Origin: an uncultured Planctomycetaceae bacterium
Lineage (GTDB): Bacteria > Planctomycetota > UBA1135 > GCA-002686595
Assembly (NCBI GenBank): GCA_964413535.1
Contig: CAYPTB010000058.1
Location: 1 to 64,000, forward strand
Reading direction: 5' to 3'
DNA: 64,000 nt
The position numbers and the translations under genes were made by a program. Shown one piece after another: positions 370 to 45,243 of this stretch. The notes under the pieces were generated by a model. That model worked only from the letters and a program-made list of their open reading frames with translations, was not told the origin of the DNA and did not search any database. Numbering within the stretch: the first letter of the stretch is position 1; every line of letters starts with the position of its first letter.

Positions 370-767
370 GTCGTCCCCCCTGCGAGAACCGGCGAATGAA
401 GGCGAAGAGCGTGAGCGAGGAAGATAGCCCTCGACACGATAGAGGCAACTTCCGAGATTCACCAGTCCTCGAGCCATGACGAGGCACGCCGGCCCGCCCG
501 AACGAACGTGGCAGCGGGAGAGCGAGAGCGCGATCACGGACGTCCGCTGGAAACACGTGCTGCTGCCGTCGGAGCGTGCGGTACCGGTTCCGCGCCAAGG
601 TCTTCACGGTGCTCGTGAACGGTCAGAGCGAGCTCTGCGCCGGCGAAGCGCCCTACAGCCGATTCAAGGTCGCCGGCTTCGTCTTGCTGCTCGTCGTGCT
701 GGCGTTCACGATCGTCGCCGCGAGCGGAGGCTTCTGAGCCGCCGACGCGCCGCACGCACCGATGGGT

Positions 768-1718: not shown

Positions 1719-1805
1719 GCGCCCCTCCTAGTGTCCCGAACCAGAAGTTCGCAAACGAAATCGAGCCGCCTGCGGCTCCCTGGCCGCGTTGCGCCTCCTC
1801 CGACG

Positions 1806-3278: not shown

Positions 3279-3473
3279 GGGTCCTCTCCGAAGCCGTGGA
3301 AGGGCGGCAGAGTAAGGGAGGTCCACGGCCAGGGCCATGCACGGGCCGATGCCGCTGCGGAACGGGGCCCGGGGTCGGGGCCTTGCACCCACGCCGTCCT
3401 GTTATAAAGGAGGGTCGTACCTGCTACCGAGATACCGAAACAACCGAGATCCCCGACCCGAGAGCCAACCGCC

Positions 3474-4004
3474 GTGAAGCAATCCTCCGTCAGCGCCGAC
3501 ATGACCATGGAGCAGATCCTGGGCGAAATCCCCTCCGCGCAGCGGGCGCTGTTCCAGCGCTATCACATCGGGGGATGCTCGTCGTGCGGATTCCAGCCCA
3601 CCGACACGCTGGCGCGCGTCTGCAAGGACCACAACATCCTCGACGTGAACGAGGTCGTCTCCTTCCTCCAGGAGGCGCACGAGCTCGACCAGCGCATGCA
3701 GCTCGAACCGGCGCTGGTACAGAGCTGGATCGACGCCGGCGAGAAGTTCTCGTTCATCGACGTGCGCGGGGAGGAAGACCTCGCGGCGGGCGAGTTCGGG
3801 CCGGCCGAGCCGATGGACTACGACGATTCGGAGCGCTACATGGGCCTCCCGAAGGACCACAAGATCGTCTTCGCCTGCATGGACGGCGACCGGGCGCTCA
3901 ACGTCGCCGCCTACTTCCGCGGCCACGGCTTCACCGAGGTCTACTGCCTGCGCGGCGGCATCAACGCGTGGCGCGCGAAGTTCGGCACCCCCGTCCGCCG
4001 CTAG
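3474..4004 (+). CDS. DUF1858 (hybrid-cluster-protein-associated redox disulfide domain) fused to a rhodanese-like sulfurtransferase domain
   Basis: The N-terminus DMTMEQILGEIPSAQRALFQRYHIGGCSSCGF is the DUF1858 CxxC pattern. The C-terminus KIVFACMDGDRALNVAAYFRGHGFTEVYCLRGGINAW is a rhodanese fold with a catalytic Cys. The start is GTG at 3474; ATG at 3501 is an alternative. Confidence 0.7.
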   Translation: MKQSSVSADMTMEQILGEIPSAQRALFQRYHIGGCSSCGFQPTDTLARVCKDHNILDVNEVVSFLQEAHELDQRMQLEPALVQSWIDAGEKFSFIDVRGEEDLAAGEFGPAEPMDYDDSERYMGLPKDHKIVFACMDGDRALNVAAYFRGHGFTEVYCLRGGINAWRAKFGTPVRR

Positions 4005-4045
4005 CTTCGTCCGCAGCGGAGCCCGCGCCGTCCGACGCAGGGCCC

Positions 4046-4597
4046 GTGGACGTGGTCCGCGTCTTCAGCGCCGGGCACTCGAACCGGAGCCTCGCGGAGT
4101 TCCTCGACCTGCTGCAGCCGCGCGCGATCGAGCTCCTCGTCGACGGGCGGCGCTTCCCCGTCTCCCGCCGCCATCCGCACTTCGGGCGCGAGCGCCTCGA
4201 GCACAGCCTCGCGGCGCAGGGCATCGCGTACGCCCACGAGCCCGAGCTCGGCGGGCACCGCGCTCCCGATCCCGCCTCGCGCAACACCGCCTGGAGGAAC
4301 GCCGCCCTACGCGGCTACGCGGACCGCATCGGCGAGCCCGCCTTCCGGGCCGCTCTGGATCGGCTCGTCGAGCGCGCGCGGCGCGGACGCACCTGCGTCC
4401 TGTGCGCCGAGGCCGAGCCCGAGCATTGTCATCGCCGCATCCTGGCCGACGTGCTCGCGAGCCTGGGCTGCGAGGTCGTGCACCTCGTCCGGGCGGGCGA
4501 GGAGCGCGCGCACGCGCTGCACCGAGCCGCGCTCGTCCTCGCTCCGGGAACCGTCGTCTATCCGGCCGGCGGCGCCGCGCAGCGCGAGCTCTTCTGA
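4046..4597 (+). CDS. DUF488 family protein
   Basis: Motifs VRVFSAGHSNRSLAEFLDLLQPRAIELLVDGRRFPVSRRHPHF...AQGIAYAHEPELGGHR and CAEAEPEHCHRRILAD match DUF488. The start is GTG at 4046 or 4052 and is uncertain. It lies in frame inside the long track ORF 3296-4597, which reads through the rhodanese gene off-frame. Confidence 0.6.
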   Translation: MDVVRVFSAGHSNRSLAEFLDLLQPRAIELLVDGRRFPVSRRHPHFGRERLEHSLAAQGIAYAHEPELGGHRAPDPASRNTAWRNAALRGYADRIGEPAFRAALDRLVERARRGRTCVLCAEAEPEHCHRRILADVLASLGCEVVHLVRAGEERAHALHRAALVLAPGTVVYPAGGAAQRELF

Positions 4598-4912
4598 GCG
4601 CGGGGGCTTTTCCGATCAGATTTGTGTAAGGCGTGGTAGCGACGCGAGTCTGCGCGCGAGCTCGAGCGTCCGTCGCTCTGTGGGTGAACCCGTCCCCGGG
4701 CGTCGAGAGCGCCGGTTGCGCCCACGGTTGCGGGGAGTGCTCGCGCCGATTCGCGCGACGAACTGCGAAAACTCGTTGCATCGGAGTGCGGTGTCTCGGA
4801 CCTGAGACTGAAGCGCGGTGCGCTCGCGTCCGCACGCGATTGTCGACTGGAGGGACGCACCTAGAATCGCGCGCCAGCCTTCCGATTCGCACCGGAACAT
4901 CAAGGAGAAAAC

Positions 4913-5305
4913 ATGAAAGCACTCGGCACTTCGATCCTCGTCTCCATCGTCCTGCTCGTGACCGCGTGGAGCGGACTCGGTTCGACCGCGGTCGCCGCGG
5001 AGACCGCGCGCGGCGCCGGAACGGGCAACTTGAGCGTCGCCACCGTGAACGCTGCCGGCAAGCCCGTCGCGGGCGCGCTCGTGAACGTCTTCGCGTCGGG
5101 CGGCGGCGCCGTCGCGTCCGGGACGACGAACGCGAATGGCAAGATCGTCTTCTCCGGTCTCGCCGCGGGCAGCTACGGCATCTTCGCCTCCAAGACGATG
5201 GTCGTGTCCGGCTTCCCGATCGCGATCTACGGCAGCGCCAACGCTACCGTGAAGGCGAACAAGACGACCGGCGTGATCGTGGCGCTCGTCAACTCCGCGC
5301 CCTGA
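4913..5305 (+). CDS. Small secreted protein with a single carboxypeptidase-regulatory-like / Cna-B-like beta-sandwich domain
   Basis: A good SD (aaGGAGaaaacATG) precedes the ATG. The signal peptide is MKALGTSILVSIVLLVTAWSGLGSTAVAAE. The mature part GNLSVATVNAAGKPVAGALVNVFASGG...TNANGKIVFSGLAAGSYGIFASK fits the G.V.D..G.P..GA.V.......T...G.F....L..G.Y pattern. Confidence 0.75.
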   Translation: MKALGTSILVSIVLLVTAWSGLGSTAVAAETARGAGTGNLSVATVNAAGKPVAGALVNVFASGGGAVASGTTNANGKIVFSGLAAGSYGIFASKTMVVSGFPIAIYGSANATVKANKTTGVIVALVNSAP

Positions 5306-5435
5306 TCGGATCCGCGCTCCGTGCGATGCCGCGTCGCGCCATGCCCCGCGCGGCGCGGCGCGCACGGACTTCCGGCCGGCCGTTCGCCCCGAGGGTTGCG
5401 GAAACGGGCGCAACCGGAGATGACGGTTCCTTCCC

Positions 5436-7454
5436 ATGTCGCTCCCCTCCGAGATCCAAGAGCACCGCCGACGGCTCCTCGCGCTCGCCCGGCACCTCGT
5501 CTCCGATCTACACCGCGCCGAGGACCTCGTCCAGGACACCTATGTCTCGGCGCTCGAGCGCGGAGCCGCGGAGGAGCCCCTCGGTTGGGCGCGGTCGTGG
5601 CGGCGGATGCGCGAGACCCTGCGCCTCAAGGCGCGCGAAGCGTTCCGCCAGGAGGACCGGCGCAAGCGTCGCGAGCGCGCGGCCGCCGCGCGCGAGTGCG
5701 ACGAGTCGGGGGTGCCCGGCCGCGACGAGCCGACCTACCTCACGGCCATCGCCGAAGAGGTCGAGCGTCTGGAGGAACCGTATCGAACGACGCTCCGGCT
5801 GCGCTTCCTCGACGAGTGGCCGCCGCGCCGCATCGCGCGCGAGCTCGCCCTGCCGGTGCAGACGGTGTACTCGCGCATCGGTCGCGGTTCGGCGCTCCTG
5901 CGCGAGCGGCTCGAGCGCAGGTTGGGAGCGCTCGCGCCGCTCCTCTTGCTGGCGCGCGGCGCGCGAACGACGCCGCCACGTGCGCAGGGTGTTCGCCCGC
6001 CGCGCTTCGCCGTTGCCGCGGGCGCCGCGGTCGCTGCGGTCGCCGCCGGAACCGCGCTGTGGGTCGCCGCGGTCGATCCCGGCTCGCTCGATGGTGATCG
6101 AGCGGTCGCTGGGGCCTGGGACGTTGTCGCGCGGGCGCCCGATCTCGGGCCTGCCGCGCCGGTCCGGGTGCTCGCACCCATCGCCGTCGATCCGCTCGTC
6201 GCGCCGCCGCGAGCGGTGGACCCCGACCTGCAAGCGGGGCGCGTGGTCGACTCCACGGGTCGTCCCGTCGCGGGCGCGGAGGTGTCGTTCGAGCGCGGGA
6301 TCCTCGCGTTCCTGACGACTTCGGTGGAGCAGACCAGGTTCACCGCGCAGAGCGTGGAAGCTCGCACGACGAGCCGCGCCGACGGGAGTTTCGAGCTCGC
6401 GCTCTCGCGAACGGTGGAAGGCCGCGTGATCGCGCGGTCGTCCGGTCTCGCGCCGCTCGTGGCCGTGATGGTCCCCGTGCCGCTCGGCATCGAGTGCATC
6501 GAGCTCGTCGTGGCGCCGGCTGCTCGGCTCGGCGGCGTCGTGCTCGACCGAGAGCGCACCCCCGTGCGCGACGCCTACGTCGTCCTGCGCGCGCCCGCCG
6601 CGTTCCTGGCCGCGCTCGAGCACGAGGATCGCACTTGGCACGCGGGGGTCCACGCCGTGACGGACGCCGAGGGACGGTTCGCGCTCCAAGACGCTTGGGA
6701 TCTCCCCGGCTCGCGCGTCGAGCTCTACCGCTCCGACCTCACACGGCACCTCGTGCTCGCCGGCGGCGAACGCGAGCTAGAGCTCGTCGTCGAGGAACTG
6801 TGCGCCGACGGGGAGAGCCTGCGCGGCTACGTCGTGACACCCACGCTCGAGCCGATCGCCGGCGCGGGCGTGTTCGCGGGTCGCGAGAACCGCCGCTCGG
6901 CCGCGGACGGCTCGTTCGAGCTCCCGCTCGCCGCGCTCGAGGAACTCGATCGGATCTGGGCCGTCGCGCGCGGCTCGCTCCCGGTTGCGTACGACCTCCC
7001 GCGCCTCGCGAACGGGAGGCTCGACCTGCCGCCCGAGATCCTGGTCGAGATCGGCGAGCACGCGCTCGCGATCACGGGCACGGTGGTGGACTCCGACGGG
7101 CGCCCGATCCCGCGCGCGAGGGTCTGGTGCGCGGACCCGACGCCCTTCGCGCCCGACCTGACGGGAGGCGTGCTCGAGGTGTGGATCGCCGGCGAGAACG
7201 CGGGCGACCCCTACGTCGTGGCCGACGCCGGCGGCGCCTTCGTGCTGCCGCACCTCATGCGGCGCGCGTACCGAGTCGGCGCGCTCGAGCGCGCGACGTT
7301 GCGCTCGGTGGTGAGCGAGCCGATCGCCGCCGGCTCGCGGGACATCGTGCTGACGATCGCGACGGACGCCCCGCTCGAGCCCTTCGACGGCGTGGCGGTC
7401 GACGTCCACGGGGCGCCGCTCGCGGGCGTCACGCTCTCGCTCGAGCGCCCATGA
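5436..7454 (+). CDS. ECF-type sigma-70 factor fused, through one TM helix, to a long extracytoplasmic array of carboxypeptidase-regulatory-like repeats (a one-polypeptide sigma/sensor)
   Basis: Region 2 is DLVQDTYVSALER. Region 4 is EPYRTTLRLRFLDEWPPRRIARELALPVQTVYSRIGRGSALLRERL. The TM helix is FAVAAGAAVAAVAAGTALWVAAV. More than 400 aa follow with repeated GRVVDSTGRPVAGAEVSF...SRADGSFEL and GTVVDSDGRPIPRARVW-type units. The start is ATG at 5436. Confidence 0.75.
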   Translation: MSLPSEIQEHRRRLLALARHLVSDLHRAEDLVQDTYVSALERGAAEEPLGWARSWRRMRETLRLKAREAFRQEDRRKRRERAAAARECDESGVPGRDEPTYLTAIAEEVERLEEPYRTTLRLRFLDEWPPRRIARELALPVQTVYSRIGRGSALLRERLERRLGALAPLLLLARGARTTPPRAQGVRPPRFAVAAGAAVAAVAAGTALWVAAVDPGSLDGDRAVAGAWDVVARAPDLGPAAPVRVLAPIAVDPLVAPPRAVDPDLQAGRVVDSTGRPVAGAEVSFERGILAFLTTSVEQTRFTAQSVEARTTSRADGSFELALSRTVEGRVIARSSGLAPLVAVMVPVPLGIECIELVVAPAARLGGVVLDRERTPVRDAYVVLRAPAAFLAALEHEDRTWHAGVHAVTDAEGRFALQDAWDLPGSRVELYRSDLTRHLVLAGGERELELVVEELCADGESLRGYVVTPTLEPIAGAGVFAGRENRRSAADGSFELPLAALEELDRIWAVARGSLPVAYDLPRLANGRLDLPPEILVEIGEHALAITGTVVDSDGRPIPRARVWCADPTPFAPDLTGGVLEVWIAGENAGDPYVVADAGGAFVLPHLMRRAYRVGALERATLRSVVSEPIAAGSRDIVLTIATDAPLEPFDGVAVDVHGAPLAGVTLSLERP

Positions 7455-7954
7455 GCCTGATCGAGTCGACGGAGGGCGGGCGCGCGCACCAGTTCGCCAT
7501 GCCGGGCGCCGTGGTCGTTACGGACGCCCTCGGACGCTTCGCCTTCGCGGCGGCGCCCGAGGATGGGTGCCTGCTGCGCGTCGGCGGCAAAGGCGTCTTC
7601 GACGGCGCCGCGCCGCTGCCCCGTGCGCGTCGCGGCGCGACCGTCGTCGTGCCGCGCGTTGCGCGCTTGCACGTGCGGGCGCACGGGCTCGGAGGCAATC
7701 GCCTCGACGTCCGTCTCCTCGACGCGAACGGCGAAGCGCTCGTCCTGCATCCCGCCGCCGACATGGACCTTTCGATCATGCTCCAGCCGCGTCGCTTCCT
7801 GTCGCTCGCGGACGGAACTTGCGAACTGCGGGTGCCCGACACGGGACGCACGCTCGTGCTCGAGAGCGAAGGCGTGGAGCTCGTCCGTCGCGCCGTGGAG
7901 CCCGTAGCCGGAGCGGTGGTCGTGGTCGGCTCGCGCCCGGAGCGAGCTCAGTAG
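7451..7954 (+). CDS. Carboxypeptidase-regulatory-like domain protein (167 aa). Its ATGA start overlaps the stop of the sigma fusion. Either a separate coupled gene or a frameshifted C-terminal extension.
   Basis: ATG at 7451 overlaps TGA at 7452-7454. The protein MSLIESTEGGRAHQFAMPGAVVVTDALGRFAFAAAPEDGCLLRVGGKG... repeats the upstream repeat pattern. Confidence 0.5.
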   Translation: MSLIESTEGGRAHQFAMPGAVVVTDALGRFAFAAAPEDGCLLRVGGKGVFDGAAPLPRARRGATVVVPRVARLHVRAHGLGGNRLDVRLLDANGEALVLHPAADMDLSIMLQPRRFLSLADGTCELRVPDTGRTLVLESEGVELVRRAVEPVAGAVVVVGSRPERAQ

Positions 7955-22426: not shown

Positions 22427-23422
22427 ATGCGCGAGCTCCTCGAGCCCTTCGTCGACGCCGGTGCGCGGCCGCAGCACGTCGAGCGCGTCGTGCGCGTGTG
22501 GCTCGCGGGTGGGGGCGTCGCGCGCGAGAGTCCCGAGCGGCGTCTCTCGTTCTCCAAAGCGCTGCGCGCGGCGCTCGACGAACTCGAGACGCGACTCGAG
22601 CGCGTCGCCGAGGTCGTGTCCGAGCATCCCGGCGCGGACGGCGGCGAGCGATTGCTCCTGCGCCTCGCGGACGGCAAGAGCGTGGAGAGCGTGCTCCTGC
22701 CGCGCGACGGCGTGTGCGTCTCGACGCAAGTCGGCTGCGCGGTCGGCTGCACGTTCTGCATGACGGGCGTCGGCGGGCTCGAGCGGCAGCTCTCGAGCGC
22801 CGAGATCCTGGCGCAGGTCGTTCAGGCGCGCCGCCGCCGCCGGCTACGGCGCGTCGTGCTGATGGGCATGGGCGAGCCGTCGCACAACCTGCCCGCGGTG
22901 CTCGAAGCCTTGACCTACCTCGGACACGCCGGCGGCTTCGGCCACAAGGAGCTCGTGTTCTCGACCGTCGGCGAGCCACGCGTCTTCGAGCGGCTCCGCG
23001 CGAACGCCGTCAAGCCGGCGCTCGCGCTCTCGCTGCACACGACCGACCGCGCCAAACGCGAAGCCCTCCTGCCGCGCGCGCCGAAGGTCGAGCCGCGCGA
23101 GCTCCTCGAGTGCGCCCTCGACTACGCCGCGCGCACGGGCCACCCGCTGCAGCTCCAGTGGACGCTGCTGGCCGGCGTGAACGACGGCGACGACGAGCTC
23201 GAGCGCCTCGTCCCCTGGCTGCGCGGCCGCCGCGCGATCGTGAACTTCATCCCCTACAACCGAGTCGAGGCCTTCGCGCACGCGAGCACGTCGCCCGAGC
23301 GCGCGCCGGAGCTCGTGCGCACCCTGCGCGCGAACGGCATCCTCGCCAAGCTGCGCCTCTCCGTCGCGAGCGACGTCGACGGCGCCTGCGGCCAGCTCCG
23401 CGCGCGCCTGCAGCCGTCGTAG
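22427..23422 (+). CDS. rlmN: Radical SAM rRNA/tRNA methyltransferase, RlmN/Cfr family (short form)
   Basis: STQVGCAVGCTFCMTG carries the CX3CX2C cluster. MGMGEPSHN and the C-terminal conserved Cys context (DGACGQL) are present. The length is 331 aa. Confidence 0.8.
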   Translation: MRELLEPFVDAGARPQHVERVVRVWLAGGGVARESPERRLSFSKALRAALDELETRLERVAEVVSEHPGADGGERLLLRLADGKSVESVLLPRDGVCVSTQVGCAVGCTFCMTGVGGLERQLSSAEILAQVVQARRRRRLRRVVLMGMGEPSHNLPAVLEALTYLGHAGGFGHKELVFSTVGEPRVFERLRANAVKPALALSLHTTDRAKREALLPRAPKVEPRELLECALDYAARTGHPLQLQWTLLAGVNDGDDELERLVPWLRGRRAIVNFIPYNRVEAFAHASTSPERAPELVRTLRANGILAKLRLSVASDVDGACGQLRARLQPS

Positions 23423-28176: not shown

Positions 28177-31128
28177 TCACGGGACGGCCGTCATGCTCAC
28201 CGCGTTGCTCGTGTGCGTGACCTCGAGCGTCACCGGAACGAACGTGACGAAGGCATGGTAGAGCACCGTGCCGGCCAAGCTCGGGTCGAGTCCCGACGGA
28301 AGCTTGAAGACGACCTGGCGCGTGCCCTTGGCATCCAGCAAGCCGAGCTTGGGCATCAGGATCGCCGCGGTGCTCGCGTTCAGGAGGAAGTTGGAGTACC
28401 AGTCCGGAACGAGGGGCAGCAACAGACCGTCGATCATCAGTCCGGGAGAAGTACCCGTGGCGCTGCCCACGATCAGGAAGGGGGCTCCGGCGTGCGCCGG
28501 CCCGGCGTCGAGCCGGAGTTCCTGCTTGCCCCCCGTGGCGAGGGAGATCGTCTCGGTGGGCGCGCTGAGCGCGACGCGTTCGAAGGCGCCCAGATCGACG
28601 CTCGAACCTTCCGGCCCGACATCGAGCGCCATGGGATCGTCGATCAGGCGGGGCAGGCCAGTGGCGTCGTACGGCAGGACCTCGTCGAGCACCCCGTTCT
28701 CGTCGAGGTCCTTGTCTCCCACGGGTAGCAGCGCGTCGTCGCCCGTATCGATACCGAGCGAGCCCGTCACGAGGCGCAGGTCGTCGTCGATCGTTCCGAG
28801 GATGCCGTCGGGACCGAGGGGATCGCGGAACAGGGGGTCACCTCCGATGACGTCGGTCCCCGGAAGGTTCCCGGTCCAACCCTGGACGAGGCTGCGCTCG
28901 ATGATCGTGTTCACGGAGTTGAACTGCGACGTTTCGAGGCTTCCGTCATCGTCCTGGTTCCCGTACAGGATGGAGTTCGACACGATTGTCTGGTCCCCCA
29001 GGGTTTCGTTGTACAGCCCGCCTCCCGATGCGCTCGTGTTGTTCGCGACCGTGCAGTTGATCAAGACCAAGCTGCTGTTCGCGAACTGGTAGCAAGCCCC
29101 TCCCTTCTTACCCGACGTGTTGCCACTGAAAACGCATTGGATGGCGGTCACCCTGGAATTGCGGCTCGCGATCGCGGCGCCGTGACCGATGGGCGCGGTG
29201 TTCCCGAAGAACCGGCAGTTGATCAGCGTCACGTCGCTCGCCATGTTCCAGACCGCCGAGCCACCGGCCGAGATGTTGTCGTTGGCCACGAAGTCACAAT
29301 CCTCGAAGAGCGCCTCGCAGAGTCGGTTGTAGGCGCCCGCGCCGCCGTTGTTGAACGTGCCCGCCGAGTTGTCGGTGATGAGGCACCCGCGAATGGTCGC
29401 GCCGCCCGAGCGATTGTTGATCCCTGCTCCGGCGTCTCCTTCATGGGGACCCGAATTGGCGTTGCCGTCGCGAACGACGAAGCGATCCAACCACGCCGTA
29501 CCGTCGGCACCGGTGCCCGAAACGACGTGGATGCTGTTCTCTCCGGTGTTGGCGAAGTTCGGGCCGTCGTCCAGCGCGAGGTCGCCGGTCAAGATCGAGA
29601 TGAGCTCTTCGCCCCGCTCTTCGAGTAACTGTTCCGTGCCCACGAATCCGCCGTACAAGCGCACGCCGGAGAGCATCTGGAACGAGGCGAAGCGATCGCC
29701 GGGCGTGAAACCTCCGCCTTGATCGGGGCGGTAGATCCCGCCGGCGACCCACAGCTCGTCGCCCGGCAACGCCCCCACGAGTGCGTCTTGGAGCTGCGCG
29801 TAGGCGTTCACCCAGCTCGTTCCATCGAGGCCGCCCTGGGAGCCATCCTTCACGTAGACGACCTTCTGGAAGCAATACACATCCGCCTTGCCGCTGCCCT
29901 GGACGGAGCCGTCCGCCAGCGGACTGCCGACGATTGCGACAGGCCCGAGCAGGGCGACGGAGGATCCGGCACGGCCCCCCGCGGCGCTGGGAGTGAGCTT
30001 GAGCGTCTGTTGCCACGCGTTCTTGCGCTCGAAGACGTAAGCCGCTCCGGCGTTCAGGCCGGCGGAGTCCTCGCGGTCCGCTCCGACGATCACTCGGCCG
30101 CCCGAGATCGCCACGGCCTTGCCGAAGAAGTCCGACTCTTGGGCGTCGTTCGCTTCGAGGATCGCGACCTCGTCCCAGGTATCGTCCAGCATCGATTCGG
30201 TGCCGTTCCCGTCACGCTGGTACACGTACGCCGCACCGGAGTTGAAACCGCCGGCACCGTCGAAGAACGATCCGACGACAATCCGGTCCAGACTCGAGTC
30301 GAGAGAGATGCCGAACAGGTCGTCGAAGGCCGCATTCGAAGCGGTCAGCTTGGCTTGCTGCTGCCAGGCGTTCCCGTTCTTCTCGAAGACGTAGACCGAG
30401 CCGGAGTCGAAGAACGGAATGCCCGGGTCCGCATCGTCGTCCTTGGGTGAGCCCACGACGACGGTCGTGCCGAAGACGTCGACCGTCGAGCCGAAGACGT
30501 CGTTGGGCTCGGGGTCCGCGGGCAGGAGCTTGGCGACCTCGACCCACGTTCCGCCCACCTTCTCGAACAGGTAGGCTGCACCGGATTGGGCTCCGAAGTC
30601 GTCGTCGGCCGCCGCGCCGGCCACGATCAGGTTGCCGTACACAGCCACCTCGCGACCCAGGCCGTCGCCGAGGGCGGCGTCGGACGCGACCAACTTGGCG
30701 GTCTCGACCCAGGTTCCTCCGATCAGCTCGAACACGTAGACCGCGCCCGAGTCGACGGCGACGGTGTCGGCGAGCGTGGCTGCGACGACCGCGACCTGCT
30801 TGTGGACGTCGACGCAGTTGCCGAAGGCATCCCCGGCGGCGGCGTCACTCGCGCGGAGCTCGGCCGTGAGTTGCCAGTTCCCACCGTTCAGCCCGAACAC
30901 GAACGCGGCGCCCGCCCCGGAACCCGCCACGTCGTCCGACATGGCGCCGACGATCGCCGTCTTTCCGTACGCCGCGACCGAAAATCCCACTAGGTCGCCG
31001 CTCGCCCCGCCCGGCGTCATCAGCGTTCCCTCGGCGCACTGCTGCGCAACAGCGGGCTCGACGAACATCGAGAAGGGCAACGCGAGAAGGACTTGGATCG
31101 GACGCAACCCGAGCTTGGGGACGAGCAT
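28177..31128 (-). CDS. Large secreted protein (983 aa): N-terminal FG-GAP/integrin-alpha-like beta-propeller repeats followed by right-handed parallel beta-helix (pectate-lyase-like) repeats
   Basis: The signal peptide is MLVPKLGLRPIQVLLALPFSMFVEPAVAQQ. At least seven FG-GAP-like units occur (FG.SVA..G...VVGA..DD...AGAAYVF). Beta-helix repeats follow (IRGCLITDNSAG, INCRFFGNTA, IQCVFSGNTS, INCTVANNTS). The start is ATG at 31128. The upstream 356 codons of the track ORF are artefact. Confidence 0.8.
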   Translation of the reverse strand: MLVPKLGLRPIQVLLALPFSMFVEPAVAQQCAEGTLMTPGGASGDLVGFSVAAYGKTAIVGAMSDDVAGSGAGAAFVFGLNGGNWQLTAELRASDAAAGDAFGNCVDVHKQVAVVAATLADTVAVDSGAVYVFELIGGTWVETAKLVASDAALGDGLGREVAVYGNLIVAGAAADDDFGAQSGAAYLFEKVGGTWVEVAKLLPADPEPNDVFGSTVDVFGTTVVVGSPKDDDADPGIPFFDSGSVYVFEKNGNAWQQQAKLTASNAAFDDLFGISLDSSLDRIVVGSFFDGAGGFNSGAAYVYQRDGNGTESMLDDTWDEVAILEANDAQESDFFGKAVAISGGRVIVGADREDSAGLNAGAAYVFERKNAWQQTLKLTPSAAGGRAGSSVALLGPVAIVGSPLADGSVQGSGKADVYCFQKVVYVKDGSQGGLDGTSWVNAYAQLQDALVGALPGDELWVAGGIYRPDQGGGFTPGDRFASFQMLSGVRLYGGFVGTEQLLEERGEELISILTGDLALDDGPNFANTGENSIHVVSGTGADGTAWLDRFVVRDGNANSGPHEGDAGAGINNRSGGATIRGCLITDNSAGTFNNGGAGAYNRLCEALFEDCDFVANDNISAGGSAVWNMASDVTLINCRFFGNTAPIGHGAAIASRNSRVTAIQCVFSGNTSGKKGGACYQFANSSLVLINCTVANNTSASGGGLYNETLGDQTIVSNSILYGNQDDDGSLETSQFNSVNTIIERSLVQGWTGNLPGTDVIGGDPLFRDPLGPDGILGTIDDDLRLVTGSLGIDTGDDALLPVGDKDLDENGVLDEVLPYDATGLPRLIDDPMALDVGPEGSSVDLGAFERVALSAPTETISLATGGKQELRLDAGPAHAGAPFLIVGSATGTSPGLMIDGLLLPLVPDWYSNFLLNASTAAILMPKLGLLDAKGTRQVVFKLPSGLDPSLAGTVLYHAFVTFVPVTLEVTHTSNAVSMTAVP

Positions 31129-31455
31129 GTCGAATCGCTGAGTTGGGGAGCAGGACGGGACGGACAGTTGCTCGCCAAGCTTATCCCGAGACCCTGCATC
31201 GTGGGGAGCCGGCCTCCTCCAGGAGCGTCCCCCACGACCGTTCGTAAGACGCGCTCCGGAGCGGGCTTGCTCGAGCCGGGCGCGGGAGGTTGGCGTGCGC
31301 GACGCACTGAGGATTCGTCCGCGCCGTCGCCGCTGCGCCGTCCACGAACCCGCGGGTTCGGCCGAATCGCCGAACACCGGTCGACGGCATCTCGATCCGC
31401 GCTCAGTTCGAGCGATTCGACGGCGTCGGCTCGAAGCGGACGACTCTCGACTACG

Positions 31456-32334
31456 ATGAATCCGATGTTTGGCGCAGGTTCGAAGCGCGGCTACGTCCCG
31501 CAATCGCCCGACACGAGCGAGTGGGCCGACCGCCTGCTCTTCGACCATTGGCGCGCGATGTCGATCGTCGAGAAGGCCGAGCTCGTCCGCGACCTGTGCC
31601 AGGCGCAGCACGAGCTCTCGCTCGCCGGCCTCCGCGCGCGGCACCCCGAAGCGAGCGAGGAGGAGCTCGAGCTCATGGCGGCCCGCCTGCGGCTCGGCGA
31701 CGAGCTGTTCGAGCGGATGCTGACGTGCGATCGGCTCGTGATCGTGACGAACGTTGACCCGGTAACCGTCGCGGTCGAGGTCGCGAGGATCCTGGAGAGC
31801 CTCGGGATCCCATACCTCGTCGCCGGATCGATGGCGAGCACGCTGTACGGCGAGCCGCGCACGACGCTCGACGTGGACTTCGCGGCGCACATCGATCCCG
31901 CGCAGGTCGACCCTCTGTGCGCCGCGCTCGAACGCACGTTCTACGTCGACCGCGAAGGAGCTCGGCAGGCCGCTCGGTCGGGCGGTCTCTTCAACGCGAT
32001 CCACACGGGTACGCACGTCAAGGTGGACATCTACGCGCGCCCGCGCACGGGAATCCACGCGGAGGAAATTCGTCGCGCCGTGCGAAGGAGGCTGGGACGA
32101 GGCGCCGAGACGGAGCTCGACGTCGCGACGCCGGAAGACACCTTGATCCAAAAGCTCCGCTGGTACCGCCTCGGCGACAAGGCATCCGATCGTCAATGGC
32201 GCGACGTGATGGGAATCCTCAAGACCATCGGCCCGAAGCTCGACCGCGCGTACCTCGATCGATGGGCGTCGAGCTTGGGCCTGACCGATCTCCTGGAGCG
32301 CGCATTCGAGGAAGCAGGACTGCGCGAGGCGTGA
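31456..32334 (+). CDS. Nucleotidyltransferase-fold protein (AbiEii/DUF1814-like GS..DxD core) with a 110-aa N-terminal helical extension
   Basis: GIPYLVAGSMASTLYGEPRTTLDVDFAAHID matches the G[GS]xA....R.T.DxDF pattern. The C-terminal PEDTLIQKLRWYRLGDKASDRQWRDVMGIL resembles the family's helix-and-basic-patch ending. The start is ATG at 31456. Confidence 0.5.
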   Translation: MNPMFGAGSKRGYVPQSPDTSEWADRLLFDHWRAMSIVEKAELVRDLCQAQHELSLAGLRARHPEASEEELELMAARLRLGDELFERMLTCDRLVIVTNVDPVTVAVEVARILESLGIPYLVAGSMASTLYGEPRTTLDVDFAAHIDPAQVDPLCAALERTFYVDREGARQAARSGGLFNAIHTGTHVKVDIYARPRTGIHAEEIRRAVRRRLGRGAETELDVATPEDTLIQKLRWYRLGDKASDRQWRDVMGILKTIGPKLDRAYLDRWASSLGLTDLLERAFEEAGLREA

Positions 32335-32437: not shown

Positions 32438-32514
32438 GCGCCCGTAGCTCAGCAGGATAGAGCACCGGTTTCCTAAACCGGGGGTCACAGGTTCAAGTCC
32501 CGTCGGGCGCGCCA
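32438..32514 (+). tRNA. tRNA-Arg (anticodon CCU)
   Basis: Manual fold: acceptor stem GCGCCCG/CGGGCGC, D-arm GCUC-AGCAGGAUA-GAGC, anticodon arm CCGGU-UUCCUAA-ACCGG (CCU reads AGG), 5-nt variable loop, T-arm ACAGG-UUCAAGU-CCCGU with one A-C mismatch, discriminator G and encoded CCA. Confidence 0.85.
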
Positions 32515-38409: not shown

Positions 38410-39837
38410 TCAGCGGGACGACGAGCGGGACAGCGCCGAGCGCGCCGCGTGGAAGCCGCACAAGCCGTGCACGCCGCCGCCGGGCGGCGTCGACGACGAG
38501 CACAGGAAGATCGCCGGGTCGGGCGTCGAATACGGATCGAGGCGCAGCGCCGGGCGTGTGAAGAACTGCGACCAGTTCTGCAGGCCGCCGTTGATGTCGC
38601 CGCCCACGTAGTTCGCGTCGTAGCGCTCGAAGTCGGCGGGGCGCAAGACGTGCTGGGCGACGATGCGGTCGCGGAAGCCGGGCGCGAAGCGCTCGATCTG
38701 CGCGAGGATCGCGTCGGTCGCGTCGCCCGGCCAAGCGTTCGGGACGTGGCAGTAGGCCCACACGACGTGCCGGCCGGCGGGCGCGCGCGTCGGGTCGAAG
38801 CTCGACGGCTGGCTCACGAGCACGAACGGGCGCTCGTGCACGCGACCGCGCGCGACGTCGAGCTCGGAGGCCATGATCTCCTCGAGGCGGCCGCCGACGT
38901 GCACGGTGCCGGCGCGGCCGCAGTCGGCGTCGCGCCACGGGATCGGGCCGTCGAGGACGAGGTCGAGCTTGAAGGCGGCGGGGCCGTGGCGGTAGCGGGC
39001 GAGCTGCGCGGCGTAACGGCCGCCGAGGCGCCCGTCGGAGACGGCGAGGACGTCCCGCGGGACTAGGTCGAGCAGCGCGACCTGGTGCGGCGGCAGCTCG
39101 CGCAGGCTCTGCACGCGGTGGCCGGTCTCGATCTCGCCGCCGTGCTCGCGCAGACAGGCCGCGAGCGCGTCCGCGATCTTCTGCGAACCGCCGCGCGGGA
39201 GCGGCCAGCCGACGGCGTGGCCGGCGACGAGCAGCGCGAGGCCGATCCCGCCCGTCAGCGGCGCGTCGAGCGGCAGGAACGAGTGCGCGCCCGAGCCTGC
39301 GACGAGCGCGCGCGCGGCGGGCGAGCGGTAGCGGCGCGCGAGCATGGCGGCGGGGAGCAGCGCGGGGAGCGCGAAGCGCGCGAGCGCGGGCCGGCGCAGG
39401 AGCGCCGTGGGCCGCAGCGGGCCGAGCAGCGCGTCGACGATCGGGCTCCAGAGCTCGACGAGCGGCCCGAAGGCCGCCGCGTAGTCGCGCGCGTCCTCGC
39501 GGTCGTCGAAGGACGCGGCCGTCTCGCGCACGCTGCGCAAGAGCAGCGCCGTCGGGCCGTCGTCGAGCGGGTGCGCGAGCTCGATCGGCGGCTCGACCCA
39601 CTCGAGGCCATGCCGCTCGAGCGCGAGCTCGCGGAAGAAGGGCGACGAGCGCGCCATCGGGTGCACGGCGCTGCACACGTCGTGCAGGACGCCCGGCTCG
39701 GTGAGCTCGGCCGTGCGGCAGCCGCCGCCGACCGTGTCGCGCGCCTCGACGAGGCGCACGCGCTTCCCCTCGCGCGCGAGCGCGATCGCCGCGGCGAGGC
39801 CGTTCGGCCCGCCGCCCACGACGACCGCGTCGATCAC
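38410..39837 (-). CDS. Phytoene-desaturase-family NAD(P)/FAD-dependent oxidoreductase (CrtI-like, COG1233)
   Basis: MIDAVVVGGGPNGLAAAIALAREGKRVRLVEARDTVGGGCRT is the dinucleotide-binding motif. The start is GTG at 39837. Confidence 0.75.
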   Translation of the reverse strand: MIDAVVVGGGPNGLAAAIALAREGKRVRLVEARDTVGGGCRTAELTEPGVLHDVCSAVHPMARSSPFFRELALERHGLEWVEPPIELAHPLDDGPTALLLRSVRETAASFDDREDARDYAAAFGPLVELWSPIVDALLGPLRPTALLRRPALARFALPALLPAAMLARRYRSPAARALVAGSGAHSFLPLDAPLTGGIGLALLVAGHAVGWPLPRGGSQKIADALAACLREHGGEIETGHRVQSLRELPPHQVALLDLVPRDVLAVSDGRLGGRYAAQLARYRHGPAAFKLDLVLDGPIPWRDADCGRAGTVHVGGRLEEIMASELDVARGRVHERPFVLVSQPSSFDPTRAPAGRHVVWAYCHVPNAWPGDATDAILAQIERFAPGFRDRIVAQHVLRPADFERYDANYVGGDINGGLQNWSQFFTRPALRLDPYSTPDPAIFLCSSSTPPGGGVHGLCGFHAARSALSRSSSR

Positions 39838-39896: not shown

Positions 39897-40100
39897 CTAC
39901 TCCTCGTCGGACTCGAGCCGGTCAGCGCCGCTCGCGGACGACGCGGACGACATCTCGACGAAGTCGCGGTTCACCCGAGAGCCCTTCCGGCCAGACCCTC
40001 GTCATCCGCTCGGACGGAGTCGTCGCGCGCAACTTTGGATCCTCGGCGGGATCGTGGAGGTAGTCCGAGCGGTCCACGGCGACGAGTCTACCCGCGGCGG
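39897..40100. repeat. Repeat copy A: a decayed, internally deleted copy of the approx 400-bp element found after the SNF2 gene (copy B)
   Basis: It aligns to 43473-43875 in the same orientation: ctactcct...ctcgagcc, ccgctcgcggacgacgcggacgacatctcgacgaagtcgcggttcacccgagagcccttcc, tcatccgctcggacggagtcgtcg, ggatcctcggcgggatcgtggag and gtccgagcggtccacggcgacgagtctacccg. It lacks about 145 bp corresponding to 43497-43640 and about 60 bp of other insertions. Confidence 0.7.
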
Positions 40101-40240
40101 TCCTCCCTCACATGCCGGCTCGACGCGCACCGGGCGCGCGCAGCGCGGGCATCTCGTCGCGCCCCGTCACGCGGCCCGCGAGGTCCGTCGAGCCGCGCAC
40201 CGGGTCTGCTAGGCTCTCACGCGACACGGGCGAGCAGCGG

Positions 40241-43200
40241 ATGGCGGACGAGAGCATCGGGGAGGTCGTGCTCGCGGAGAGATGGAAGCGGTTCTTCCCG
40301 GCCGCGATCCGCGTGCGCGGTGCCGCCTACGCTCGCGACGGGCTCGTCGACGTCACGGAGCTCGAAGAGGGGCTCGTGCAGGCCGTGGTCCAGGGGAGGA
40401 CCGCCTACGACGTCTGCATCGATTGGAGCGATCCGGACGCGCCGATGGGATCCTGCACGTGCTCCGGGTTCGACGCGTTCGGCCCGTGCAAGCACATGTG
40501 GGCGCTCGTCCTGCGCCTGGAGGGCGCGACCGAGGCCGCCGGGAGGCGCAGCGGGTCCATCGGACGTGAGGATCCACGCCGGAGCCCCTGGCGCGCCCGC
40601 CTGGACGGTTTGCGCGCAGCCGTCGAGCATGCGGCCCGAGCTGCGGCCGAGCTCGGGGAGCGGAACCCGTGGCACGGCTCGATCGAGCCCGACTTCGAGA
40701 TTCGCTACGTGATCTCGGTCGAGGGATCGCGGGACACGGGCGGTCTGCTCGTGGAGCCGCGCATCCGCCGCCGCAAGAAGAACGGTGGATGGGGGGCGGA
40801 GCGCGCTTTCTCGCCCGGCGGCCGGGGAGCTTCTGGGCTCGACATGTCCGACCGGCGGATCTTCGCCGTGCTCGAGGGAGCGGGCGACGACGTCGGCTAC
40901 TTTTGGCCTCGCTCCGCCCTCGCGGAGTACCGCGTCGAAGGCGAGCTCCTGCCCGTCGTGCTCCCCATTCTCGTCGCCAGCGGACGCTCGTTCGCGAGGA
41001 GCGCCTCCAAGTTCTTCGGACCGCTCGTGCTCGACGAAGGTCCGAGCTGGCACCCGTCGTTCGACCTCGAGCGCGACGCGGAATCGCTCGTCCTGCGCGC
41101 GGCGCTGGTCCGGGGCGAGGAGCGGATGGACGTGGCCGAGCCCGACTTCCTGCTCGACGGCGGATACCTCGTGGTCCGCGACGTCGTCGCCCGCTTCGAC
41201 GAGGCGGGCGCGTGGATCCTCGCGACCGAGCTGCGCGCCAACGGGGTGCTGCGCGCGCCCGTCGACGGGCACGCGCGGCTCCTCGAGATGCTGGCGCGGC
41301 TCCCCGCGCGCGTTCTCGGTCACGTCGACGGGATGGAGGTCTCGGGTCAGGGGACCCCACGACCGTGTCTCCACGTGGAATCCCCACGCGACGGTCCCGC
41401 TCGGGGGAATCCGAAGCTCGACTGCCGCATCGCGTTCGAGTACGGGAGCGAGCTCGTCGCTCCCGAGGATCCGCGCGAGCTCCTGCCGAGCGCGGGCGCG
41501 GGGAGCTACTCCGCGCGCGACTTCGCGGCGGAGCGCGAAGCGCTGCGGCGCTTCCGGGACTGCGGCGGCGAGCGCTCGGCCGGCACAGGGCGCGAATCGG
41601 GCAACGGAGCCGTGCCCGCGCGGCGCCTGCCGGCGCTGGCCCTCGCCTTGACCGAGGAGGGGTGGCGCGTCGAGGCGGAGGGCAGGCGCTGGCGACGGTC
41701 GCAGGGCTTCGCGCTTTCCGTCCGCTCCGGCACGGATTGGTTCGACCTGGAGGGCGGCATGGACTTCGGCGGCGAGACCGCCGGCCTGCCGGCGCTGCTC
41801 GCGGCGGCGCGCGCCGGCGAGCGGACGGTGCTGCTCGGCGACGGCTCGTTCGGCTTGCTTCCCGAGCGCTGGCTGGAGGACTGGGGCCTGCTCCAGCTCG
41901 CCCGGGAGGAGCGGGCGGGGGCTCTGCGCTTCGCGCAGAACCAAGGCTGGTTGCTGGACGCCATGCTGCTCGCCCGCGAAGGCGTCGAGGTCGACGCGGG
42001 CTTCGCGCGGCTGCGCGAGCGGCTGGCCGGATTCGACGGGATCACCCCCGGAGTGGAGCCGCGCGGGTTCGAGGGGACGCTGCGCGGGTACCAGCGAGCT
42101 GGCCTGGGGTGGTTCGCGTTCCTGCGCGACCTCGGATTCGGCGGTTGTCTCGCGGACGACATGGGGCTCGGCAAGACGGTGCAGGTGCTCGCCCTGCTCG
42201 AGTCGCGGCGGTGCGAGCTCGCCGGCGATCACCGGCCTTCGCTCGTCGTGGCTCCGCGCTCGCTCGTCTTCAACTGGATCGACGAGGCGGCACGCTTCAC
42301 GCCGCGGCTCGCGACGCTCGACTACACGGGCATCGACCGCCGCGAGCGCCTGCGCGCGGCCGGGAGAGTCGACGTCCTCGTGACGACCTACGGCACGCTG
42401 CGCCGCGATGGGCCGGAACTCGCCGAGCGCCGCTTCGACTACCTCGTGCTCGACGAGTCCACGTCCATCAAGAACGCGAGCAGTCAGTCGGCGAAGGCCG
42501 CTCGACTCCTCGCGGCGGAGCATCGGTTGGCGCTCTCGGGCACGCCGATCGAGAACCATCTCGGCGATCTGTGGTCGCTCTTCGAGTTCCTGAACCCGGG
42601 CATGCTCGGGCGCTCGCGCACGTTCCAGGCCTTCGTCACCCGCAGCCCCGGGAGGGCCGGCGCCCCCGATCTCGAGCGCCTGGCGCGCGCGATCCGGCCG
42701 TTCTTCCTGCGCCGCACGAAGGACGAAGTACTCGACGACCTGCCCGAGAAGACCGAACAGACGATCCACTGCGAGCTCGGCCGGTCCGAGCGCAAGGACT
42801 ACGACGAGCTCCGCGCTCACTACCGCGCGAGCCTGCTCCAGCGCGAAGCGGAGGTCGGACTCGGACGGATGAAGATCCACGTGCTCGAGGCGCTCTTGCG
42901 GCTGCGTCAGGCGGCGTTGCACCCGGGTCTGATCGACCCCAAGCGAACGGGCGAGTCGTCGGCCAAGCTCGAAGCGCTCCTGCCGATGCTCGAGCAGCTC
43001 GTGGGAGAGGGCCACAAGGCGCTCGTCTTCTCGCAGTTCACGGCGCTGCTCGACATCGTGAGGAGCCGCCTGGACGCGAGCGGCATCCCCTACGAGTACC
43101 TCGACGGACGCACGCGCAATCGAAAGGAACGGGTCGCACGCTTCCAAGGGGATCGCGCCTGCCCGCTGTTCCTGATCAGCCTCAAGGCCGGCGGCCACGG

Positions 43201-43465
43201 CCTCAACCTCACCGCAGCCGACTACGTGTTCCTGCTCGACCCGTGGTGGAACCCCGCCGTCGAAGCCCAAGCCGTCGATCGCGCCCACCGCATCGGCCGC
43301 ACGCGTCCCGTCGTCGCCTATCGCCTGATCGCGAAGGCCACGGTGGAGGAGAAAGTCCTCGACCTGCAAGCACAGAAACGCGAGCTCGTGAAGACCCTCC
43401 TGGGCGACGGTCGCGCCGTGCTGAAGGACCTCACCCGCGAGGACCTCGAGCGTCTGTTGTCGTGA
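40241..43465 (+). CDS. SNF2-family helicase with an N-terminal SWIM zinc finger (YwqA-like bacterial Snf2)
   Basis: The SWIM motif is [20 protein letters not shown]. The SNF2_N region has [12 protein letters not shown] and [13 protein letters not shown] (a DESH-like box). The HELICc region has [69 protein letters not shown]-like. The start is ATG at 40241 ([10 protein letters not shown]). Confidence 0.85.
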   Translation: [1074 protein letters not shown]

Positions 43466-43472
43466 GCGCGCT

Positions 43473-43683
43473 CTACTCCTCTTCGGCCTCGAGCCAAGCC
43501 ACGTCCCGCAGATCCTTGGGGCGGCCCGAGGAGCGTTTGTTCGTCAACAAGTGCTCGCGCGACAGCACCGGAACCGCGATGCCGGCTATCTCGACCGTGA
43601 TCGCGCGGGCGACCGTGGGCAGCGAGAGCGTGAGCCCCGACGACGAGGTACTCAGCACCGCTCGCGGACAACGCGGACAACAT
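43473..43683 (-). pseudogene. Frameshifted remnant of a small nucleotidyltransferase-fold gene inside repeat copy B
   Basis: One minus-strand frame from ATG 43683 reads MLSALSASGAEYLVVGAHALAAHGRPR (the GS/G..A..hG.PR N-terminal motif). A second frame ends ...VEIAGIAVPVLSREHLLTNKRSSGRPKDLRDVAWLEAEEE* at 43473 (the K.aaGRpKDl.D..L C-terminal motif). The two frames switch near 43595-43610. Confidence 0.45.
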
Positions 43684-43875
43684 GTCGACGAAGTCGCGGT
43701 TCCCCGGCGAGCCCTTCCTTGAAGGCCCACGCCTGCAACGTGAGCTGCCAGACCATCATCATCCGTTCGGATGGAGTCGTCGACCGGAGCTCGGGATCCT
43801 CGTCCGGATCATGGAGCCTCTTCAAGCGCGTCGGATAGGTCGAGCGGTCCACACCGACCCAAGTCTAACCGAACG
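43473..43875. repeat. Repeat copy B, the fuller copy. With copy A it brackets the SWIM-SNF2 gene as imperfect direct repeats.
   Basis: It starts 8 bp after the SNF2 stop. It shares long blocks with 39897-40100 at roughly 75-85% identity within blocks. Confidence 0.7.
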
Positions 43876-44091: not shown

Positions 44092-45243
44092 ATGGACTCG
44101 CTTGCGAAGGATTCCCTGGCCGACCTCCGCAATCATCACGAGCCTCCGTGTCTCTCGCTCTACCAGCCGACGCATCGGCAGGGGCCCGAGAAGCGCCAGG
44201 ACCCCATTCGCTTCCGGAATCTCGTGAAGGAGATGGAGGAGTCGCTGCGCGCGAAGCACTCGGCGAGCGTGGTCGAGGCGCTCCTGGAGCCGTTCCGGGC
44301 GCTCGCGGACGACGACGCGTTCTGGACCTACACGCGCGAGGGTCTCGCCGTCCTGGGCGCTTCCGGCACTTTTCAGGTGTACAAACTTCAGCGACCGGTG
44401 CCGGAGCTCGGCATCGTGGCGGCGAGCTTCCACACGAAGCCGCTCTTGCGGATCCTGCAGTCAGCAGACCGTTTCCAGATCCTCGGGCTCTCGCTGAAGG
44501 CGATCCGGCTGTTCGAGGGCAACCGCGATGCCCTCGACGAGATCGCGCTCCGGCAGGGGGTCCCGCGCACGCTCGTCGAAGCGTTGGGAGCGGAAGTGAC
44601 CGATCCGCATCTCACGGTCGGCTCCTACGGCGGCAAGGGCGTGGGGGGAACGCCGATGCACCACGGACACGGCGCCAAGAAGGACGAAGTCGACAAGGAC
44701 GCCGAGCGTTTCTTCCGCATCGTCGACCGCGCGCTCCTGGAGCATCACTCGCGCCCGTCGGGCCTACCCTTGTTGTTGGCGGCGCTGCCCGAGCATCACC
44801 ACCTCTTCCACCAAGTCAGCCGCAATCCGTTCCTGCTGCGCTCGGGGATCCAGATCCATCCGGACGCGCTGTCGATCGACGCGCTGCGCGAGCGCGCCTG
44901 GCGTGCGGTCGAGCCCAACTACCTCGCGCGATTGGCGGAGCTCGTCGACGCGTTCGGGGAAGCGCGCACCCGCAAGCTCGGCTCGGACAACCTGGCTCAG
45001 GTGAGCGAAGCGGCCGCGGGCGGACGCGTCGCGACGCTGCTCATCGAAGCCGACCGCCAGATTCTCGGTCGGATCGACGCCGAGAGCGGTCGCATGGAGC
45101 TCGCGGGCGTCGGGGACACGGAAGTCGACGACCTGCTCGACGACCTCGGCGAGCTGGTAGCGAGCAAGAAGGGCGACGTCGTGGTCGTCCCCGGCGAGCG
45201 CATGCCGACGGACACCGGAGTGGCTGCGATCTACCGCTATTGA
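44092..45243 (+). CDS. baeRF-like / Host_attach-like protein (bacterial eRF1/Pelota-fold family)
   Basis: The C-terminal VDDLLDDLGELVASKKGDVVVVPGERMPTDTGVAAIYRY resembles eRF1 domain-3 / Host_attach endings (...GGxAAILRY). The N-terminal PCLSLYQPTHRQGPE...WTYTREGLAVLGASG fits baeRF N-domains. The start is ATG at 44092. Confidence 0.45.
   Translation: MDSLAKDSLADLRNHHEPPCLSLYQPTHRQGPEKRQDPIRFRNLVKEMEESLRAKHSASVVEALLEPFRALADDDAFWTYTREGLAVLGASGTFQVYKLQRPVPELGIVAASFHTKPLLRILQSADRFQILGLSLKAIRLFEGNRDALDEIALRQGVPRTLVEALGAEVTDPHLTVGSYGGKGVGGTPMHHGHGAKKDEVDKDAERFFRIVDRALLEHHSRPSGLPLLLAALPEHHHLFHQVSRNPFLLRSGIQIHPDALSIDALRERAWRAVEPNYLARLAELVDAFGEARTRKLGSDNLAQVSEAAAGGRVATLLIEADRQILGRIDAESGRMELAGVGDTEVDDLLDDLGELVASKKGDVVVVPGERMPTDTGVAAIYRY

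Follow-up and report, generated by a model that had tools for sequence, protein, structure and literature searches.

Why a single helicase gene should lie tightly enclosed between two directly repeated and decayed stretches of DNA is the question raised by a contig of an uncultured Planctomycetaceae bacterium (CAYPTB010000058.1), whose first 64,000 nucleotides (nt) constitute the window analysed here. The gene encodes a protein with SWIM, SNF2-rel_dom and Helicase_C domains (Pfam), and the repeated elements are found directly upstream and downstream of it. The reading made from the sequence alone (the sequence-only reading) had derived both elements from one small nucleotidyltransferase (NTase) gene and had seen in them the footprint of a duplication or recombination that placed the helicase gene between two copies or, alternatively, the degenerate ends of a mobile cassette. 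The present analysis points to another answer: the repeats are probably paralogous copies of a toxin-antitoxin-like two-gene module, both on the minus strand, which flank the SWIM-SNF2 gene and have decayed independently of each other. The import of a helicase gene bounded by repeats is unsupported, and its place is taken by two decaying toxin-antitoxin-like cassettes.

A repeat search of the window revealed four same-strand collinear blocks shared by the two elements, 39897–39919/43473–43495 (91% identity), 39922–40001/43652–43731 (84%), 39990–40059/43747–43816 (81%) and 40061–40083/43836–43858 (83%), and the main block was recovered by pairwise BLASTN with an E value of 4.7e-26. Each element has the other as its sole match in the window (E ~2e-24 to 4e-24). 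The upstream element ends at position 40100, 140 nt from the ATG of the helicase gene (40241), and 7 nt lie between the stop codon of this gene (43465) and that of the downstream remnant (43473). Both the collinear direct repeats and the spacing described in the sequence-only reading are therefore real. The 199-nt size difference between the elements, previously attributed to a single internal deletion of 145 bp in the shorter copy, results from three deletions of 154, 27 and 18 nt. The similarity is bounded on one side by the stop codon of the cassette and on the other by a point about 23 nt 5' of its start, sharp edges that would be expected if constraint had acted on the genes alone. With a guanine plus cytosine (GC) content of 70% and many short spurious repeats, the window would lend itself to a chance likeness of GC-rich, low-complexity DNA, but this explanation is refuted by the four collinear blocks (E 5e-26) and by the translation of both copies into one conserved protein family with 1332 database matches. 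A possible third copy at 23016–23058 is a weak match, out of frame within a radical S-adenosylmethionine gene, and was dismissed as due to chance.

The nature of the repeated unit became clear from a search of 5.8 billion proteins, using as a query the conceptual protein obtained by joining the frames of the longer copy. The matches belong to three classes: proteins of ~70 residues, 65–73% identical to the N-terminal part of the query; NTases of ~147 residues that start with MNRDFVEMLSAL..AGAEYLVVGAHALAAHGRPRATGDLD and end with GRPKDLADVAWLE; and a few proteins of ~200 residues that span both parts. Contig look-ups showed that the genes for the 70-residue and the 147–149-residue proteins are adjacent, with a 53-nt overlap, as in the pairs located at 6001–6213/6161–6610 (L081) and at 6001–6213/6161–6604 (L082 and L083), all of them intact and surrounded by unrelated housekeeping genes. 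The small gene is placed directly upstream of the NTase gene, overlapping it, in these three loci and in at least 13 metagenome loci. The start of the NTase gene lies 53 nt ahead of the end of the small gene, in the +1 frame. The DNA that encodes the tail of the small protein (EPRLRRDVVRVVRR, followed by the stop codon) specifies, in the other frame, the first helix of the NTase (MNRDFVEMLSAL); in the window this corresponds to 43652–43704. Within the overlap, distant taxa share an unchanged 18-nt stretch (GAACCGCGACTTCGTCGA), because the same DNA codes in two frames. Since the two protein classes adjoin and overlap in this way, what had been taken for one small NTase gene read in two frames is a two-gene cassette; the derivation of the repeats from an NTase-fold family is thus maintained, whereas a single small gene as their source is not. 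The natural fusions of ~200 residues (P0005, P0019, P0042 and P0048) amount to a frame change of 1 nt. No match above threshold was obtained for either cassette protein in Pfam, NCBIfam or PADLOC, and this MenT1-like NTase family with its 70-residue partner, although abundant (>1300 matches), is unnamed and captured by no Pfam or NCBIfam model.

Inspection of the minus-strand translations confirmed that both window copies are decayed, to different extents. They have in common the N-terminus ...TTPSERM..VW...EGL.GEPRLRR.VVRVVRER, ending at a stop codon, and finish with a like tail, LE.EEE, again followed by a stop. In both small open reading frames (ORFs) a GTG start replaces the MDxP N-terminus of the family. 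The downstream small ORF keeps all the invariant and near-invariant columns of the 70-residue family and is 71–73% identical to P0002 and P0003. The start codon of the accompanying NTase is mutated to GGG; its N-terminal remnant, read in the +1 frame across the 3' end of the small ORF, stops just short of the catalytic T-G-D-L-D motif, and ~70 codons have been lost, together with a frameshift, between this remnant and the C-terminal one (junction near 43594–43604, in CGCGCGATCAC). The two frames noted earlier in the longer copy are accordingly in part the natural overlap of two genes and in part the product of this frameshifting deletion. In the upstream copy, residues ~1–17 of the NTase are joined to the last ~6 of its 147 residues by an in-frame deletion of ~125 codons, and the small ORF has lost, also in frame, 6 codons (PTRLKR) and 9 codons from the core of the conserved helix (QLTLQAWAFK), and it is probably non-functional. 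In terms of the family alignment, the NTase deletions remove residues ~35–104 in the downstream copy and ~18–142 in the upstream one, in both cases including the T-x-D-x-D motif. Their boundaries differ, the downstream deletion being nested within the upstream one. The active-site T/D motif is consequently absent from both NTases, and the K and D residues are left, out of frame, just in the C-terminal remnant of the downstream copy. No Pfam match was found for the NTase fragments of the window.

Over the columns that both small ORFs occupy, they share 80% identity, and no database homologue exceeds 70% identity to either. As mutual closest relatives with a common GTG start, they are therefore sister copies. 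Nei-Gojobori estimates of the synonymous divergence (dS) were 0.39 for the whole ORF and 0.57 for the non-overlapping part, with non-synonymous to synonymous ratios (omega) of 0.30 and 0.24, respectively. Half of the 20–24 differences are synonymous, compared with an expected share of 24–26% (binomial P = 0.01). A dS of ~0.4–0.6 together with an omega of ~0.25 implies that both copies were selected genes for most of the time since their separation and that the deletions came late. On this codon-level evidence the copies appear as old paralogues that remained under purifying selection and decayed late.

The fold was examined because neither protein gave an above-threshold family match. The natural fusion P0005 was modelled with AlphaFold from a 119-sequence alignment (predicted local distance difference test score, pLDDT, of 85), and the best Protein Data Bank (PDB) match of the model was MenT1, the toxin of the MenAT1 system (8an5_B, E 7e-5, template modelling (TM) score 0.54–0.57; also 8an4), followed by TM1012, LnuA and ANT(2'')-Ia. 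The profile of the family, compared with the PDB, likewise placed MenT1 at the top, with an E value of 2.5e-4 over the full length of the NTase. The equivalents of the MenT1 residues G, T39, D41, D43, K137, D149 and D152 are conserved in 94–97 of the 97 intact homologues, and the region of the model that corresponds to the small protein consists of one long helix (H28–44). These results concern the intact members of the family and not the gutted copies of the window. As judged from the model, the cassette has the layout of MenAT1 and the predicted fold of its toxin.

A comparable decay was observed in other genomes. With the invariant 18-mer as exact probe, 120 metagenome stretches were retrieved, 31 of them with true cassettes, of which 22 were fully covered by their contig. 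The pair is intact in 13 of these 22 cassettes; in five the small gene is intact and the NTase disrupted (L137, L174, L193, L159 and L171), in three the NTase is intact and the small gene partial or absent, and in one both genes are disrupted. In L137 residues ~42–90 are deleted, the onset of this deletion lying almost at that of the window deletion, and just ~20–25 NTase residues remain in L159 and L171. The cassette has thus repeatedly lost its NTase while keeping the small gene, as would be expected if the NTase were a toxin, and this provides a cheap comparative argument for a toxin-antitoxin function.

Taken together with the structural similarity, the following picture can be proposed. 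The intact module, present in many other genomes, comprises a ~70-residue protein with one conserved amphipathic helix and a minimal nucleotidyltransferase of ~147 residues. The latter may block translation by adding nucleotides to the 3' ends of transfer RNAs (tRNAs), and the small protein would bind and so neutralise it, possibly also by inducing autophosphorylation of the conserved Thr. One ancestral cassette would have given rise to two copies in this genome, both long held by purifying selection, after which the NTase gene of each copy was presumably lost to a separate internal deletion. The upstream copy would subsequently have lost the core of its small gene, while the downstream one has an intact small ORF that may still be useful.

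Several points weigh against this interpretation. The omega values derive from 24 substitutions only, and the overlapping frame constrains part of the ORF. Because the 18-mer lies in the overlap, the metagenome survey favours cassettes in which the 3' end of the small gene is preserved, and the disruption in L193 is a single frameshift, possibly an assembly error. The family matches of the NTase stay below the gathering thresholds, both for AbiEii (PF08843; 14–21 bits, the best ones 18.1–20.9, against 22.5) and for DUF6036 (PF19502; 18.7 bits against 23.6) and DUF2204 (PF09970; 16.8 against 20.3). NCBIfam yielded no NTase-family match and PADLOC just a marginal one to AbiEii (E 0.009). A profile of 23 small proteins searched against all PDB sequences, including that of MenA1 in 8an5, gave no match at E<=10. 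The toxin-antitoxin function is inferred by analogy, and natural fused forms are unusual for a classical toxin-antitoxin pair. Finally, decay alone fails to explain why the two copies bracket one gene so tightly and in the same orientation.

A rival account of this geometry is a recombination or duplication footprint, in which the SNF2 gene and one cassette entered a resident cassette by homologous (Campbell-type) recombination, or the arrangement arose by local duplication. The same orientation of the copies, the short distances of 140 nt and 7 nt, their being mutual closest relatives and the end of the similarity exactly at the cassette boundaries all agree with such an event. So does the GC content at third codon positions (GC3) of the small ORFs (39922–40077 and 43652–43852), which is ~0.75 compared with 0.85–0.97 in the surrounding genes, although in small samples of 51 and 66 codons; it hints at a cassette acquired from a lower-GC source, or drifting. 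This scenario concerns the origin of the arrangement and is compatible with later decay. Against it stand the dS and omega values, which make the event ancient, with both copies functional afterwards, so that a fresh insertion or duplication scar is discarded and just an ancient event could be meant. The GC comparison of the SNF2 gene with its neighbours disclosed no anomaly, its GC and its GC3 (0.895) falling within their range. The cassette was absent beside all 85 SNF2-homologue loci checked, and no genome with an empty site was found. The closest available SNF2 relatives are 48–64% identical: neither the 80 SNF2-homologue genome loci (best identity 48%) nor the two nearest relatives (55% and 64%) have the CrtI-like or baeRF neighbours in common with the window. 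The best match of the baeRF3-like neighbour lies in an unrelated gene context, and because this protein is 66–71% identical across phyla, its identity cannot single out close genomes. Overall, we regard an origin by recombination or duplication as unlikely. That the repeats are degenerate ends of a transposable or integrative element carrying the SNF2 gene is very improbable, since it has in its favour just the geometry of direct repeats around a single gene, whereas the repeats are protein-coding remnants that run from a start region to a stop codon, and not element ends. The neighbourhood contains extracytoplasmic function (ECF) sigma factors, a Ser/Thr kinase, an ankyrin protein and transporters, and no integrase, transposase or recombinase. 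Downstream there is no attachment-site-like repeat of the 3' end of tRNA-Arg (CCT, 32438–32514), the only tRNA present; no compositional break occurs, and none of the 85 SNF2-homologue loci has the repeats. The repeat search, although not aimed at target-site duplications, showed nothing resembling one. A role of the repeats in moving or regulating the helicase gene has no support, and a literature search on bacterial SWIM-SNF2 helicases found nothing relevant.

A further possibility concerns the downstream small ORF (43652–43852), which might be a retained orphan antitoxin, selected after the loss of its toxin, for instance against related NTase toxins from other sites of the genome or from incoming elements, the rest being junk. 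The ORF is intact with every family-invariant residue, omega is below 1, and the small gene is kept beside a disrupted NTase in the five cassettes of 22 mentioned above. On the other hand, its GTG start has no clear ribosome-binding site, the MDxP N-terminus is missing, and the promoter scan detected no sigma-70-like site. Omega spans the long period before the toxin was lost and is therefore no proof of present-day selection on the 66-codon ORF. We consider this proposal tentative and more doubtful than not. Similarly speculative is its extension to an undescribed MenAT-like family in which the tail of the antitoxin and the N-terminal helix of the toxin are written on the same 53 nt, an insertion or deletion of 1 nt toggles between split and fused forms, and the 66-residue product perhaps confers immunity to related NTase toxins. 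In summary, the SWIM-SNF2 gene is ordinary-looking and is bracketed by copies of an unnamed MenT1-like cassette that is probably a toxin-antitoxin module. The cassette family, with its two-frame overlap, its split and fused forms and its lack of a curated model, and the possible orphan small ORF are the more interesting part of the locus, the features of which are collected in Table 1.

Table 1. Features of the helicase locus and its two cassette remnants (positions in the window).
Feature	Position	Strand	Description and evidence
Upstream cassette remnant, whole repeat unit	39897..40100	-	~23 nt common 5' leader, shortened small ORF and mini NTase ORF; collinear blocks, BLASTN, three-frame translation
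Upstream small ORF	39922..40077	-	51 codons, GTG...TGA; family alignment, codon alignment
Upstream NTase remnant	39897..39974	-	25-codon mini-ORF VNRDFVEMSSASSASGA-DR-LESDEE (stop); compared with P0023/P0026
SWIM zinc-finger/SNF2/Helicase_C protein	40241..43465	+	1074 residues, intact; Pfam; 100% identity to P0121
Downstream cassette remnant, whole repeat unit	43473..43875	-	repeat blocks, BLASTN, three-frame translation
Downstream small ORF	43652..43852	-	66 codons, GTG...TGA, intact; family alignment
Downstream NTase N-terminal remnant	43600..43704	-	GNRDFVDMLSALSASGAEYLVVGAHALAAHGRPR, family residues 1–34; tblastn with P0023/P0026
Downstream NTase C-terminal remnant	43473..43604	-	AITVEIAGIAVPVLSREHLLTNKRSSGRPKDLRDVAWLEAEEE (stop), family residues ~105–147, other frame; translation, tblastn
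Left neighbour, CrtI-like flavin adenine dinucleotide (FAD) oxidoreductase	38410..39837	-	Pfam/NCBIfam; 59 nt downstream of upstream remnant, same strand
Right neighbour, baeRF family-3 protein (ribosome-hibernation-factor-like)	44092..45243	+	Pfam/NCBIfam, start after P0143; divergent from downstream small ORF

Other observations were made at this locus and its counterparts. A terminator-like hairpin with a T-rich tail is located on the plus strand at 43513–43532, 48 nt past the SNF2 stop codon and within the NTase C-terminal remnant (in the DNA that codes for GRPKD). It could serve as terminator of the SNF2 gene, but one such site equals the count obtained from shuffled sequence. The right neighbour (44092–45243) is 66–71% identical to proteins of Gammaproteobacteria (Competibacteraceae, Methylocaldum), Deltaproteobacteria and Planctomycetes, a conservation far above that of its window neighbours. 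In L084 the SNF2 relative with 55% identity is followed immediately, at 6673–7790, by two tiny ORFs and a Polbeta-MNT/HepT (HEPN) toxin-antitoxin pair; the space after the helicase gene thus hosts an NTase-type module in that lineage too. The locus L136 (Ga0182021_10020608, 1–7802) carries an intact cassette (149–758) and a distantly related NTase paralogue (4973–5473) which bracket a 1074-residue GmrSD/Mrr_N restriction-type gene on the opposite strand. A 189-nt copy (93% identity) of the 3' end of a neighbouring FAD/nicotinamide adenine dinucleotide (NAD) oxidoreductase gene follows each of the two NTases, and a third, 107-nt copy of this 3' end lies at 4663–4769. It is a rearranged locus resembling a defence island, and its geometry recalls that of the window.

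The gene at 31456–32334 (292 residues), which the sequence-only reading had placed in the same family, shares with the cassette NTase just the NTase core motif, over 27 residues by BLASTP (E 3e-4) and 54 columns by hhalign (probability 49%). There is no full-length homology, no Pfam model matches it, and among solved structures its closest relative is 5uvd and not MenT1. It was hence rejected as the source of the repeats and is a distant superfamily relative. This ORF ends ~100 nt before the tRNA-Arg(CCT) gene (32438–32514), and in L023 (Gemmatimonadaceae) a homologue with 30% identity occurs at a distance of 3.4 kb from an SNF2 homologue. On the minus strand, the mechanical ORF of 1339 residues at 28177–32196 is a high-GC artefact; the real gene in this region has its start near 31160 and codes for a secreted protein with FG-GAP repeats and the signal peptide MLVPKLGLRPIQVLLALPF... 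In L084, too, an FG-GAP protein is encoded ahead of the SNF2 relative.

Among the known systems, the closest to the cassette is MenAT1 of M. tuberculosis (MenA1, Rv0078B; MenT1, Rv0078A). MenAT1 is formed by the 68-residue antitoxin MenA1 and the tRNA-modifying NTase MenT1, menA1 being placed upstream of the menT-like gene in 15 of 21 homologues, and MenA1 works via a long helix spanning two protomers of the toxin (PMC10435456). It also triggers autophosphorylation of T39 (PMC11375011). In both systems the gene for a short, helix-bearing protein lies directly upstream of that of a small NTase, MenT1 is the best match of the cassette enzyme by fold and by profile, and the equivalents of T39, D41, K137, D149 and D152 are kept. 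In contrast, the cassette NTase has 147 residues against ~190 in the solved MenT1 chains, no sequence similarity between its 70-residue partner and MenA1 could be detected, and 53 nt are common to the two genes in different frames, with natural fusions. Both NTase copies of the window are, in addition, destroyed.

The type IV AbiE system (AbiEi/AbiEii, DUF1814) shares with the cassette the NTase toxin fold, reflected in the weak AbiEii matches in Pfam and PADLOC. The AbiEii model, nevertheless, has 238 positions against the 147 residues of the cassette NTase, and while the antitoxins AbiEi, MenA3 and MenA4 are COG5340-family proteins (PMC10435456), the cassette partner has just 70 residues and no recognisable domain. 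The minimal NTases of the TM1012, DUF6036 and DUF2204 families are similar in length (~150 residues) and in fold (2ewr/2fcl, target-normalised TM-score of 0.63), and DUF6036 and DUF2204 are the best Pfam matches of the cassette NTase, yet below threshold. We know of no function for these families, and a literature search on DUF6036 and DUF2204 found nothing relevant, one unrelated paper naming DUF2204. Like the type VII MNT-HEPN pairs (MntA/HepT), the cassette is a small module of two genes, one of them for an NTase, that is dispersed over intergenic sites. In those pairs the NTase serves as antitoxin to a toxic HEPN RNase, whereas the 70-residue partner has no HEPN match and the cassette NTase belongs to a MenT1-like branch, not to Polbeta/PF01909. 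Finally, the state of the window copies resembles that of chromosomal toxin-antitoxin pseudogenes and orphan antitoxins, in which the toxin gene is deleted and the antitoxin-like gene persists, across genomes; what sets this locus apart is that two sister remnants bracket one unrelated gene in direct orientation.

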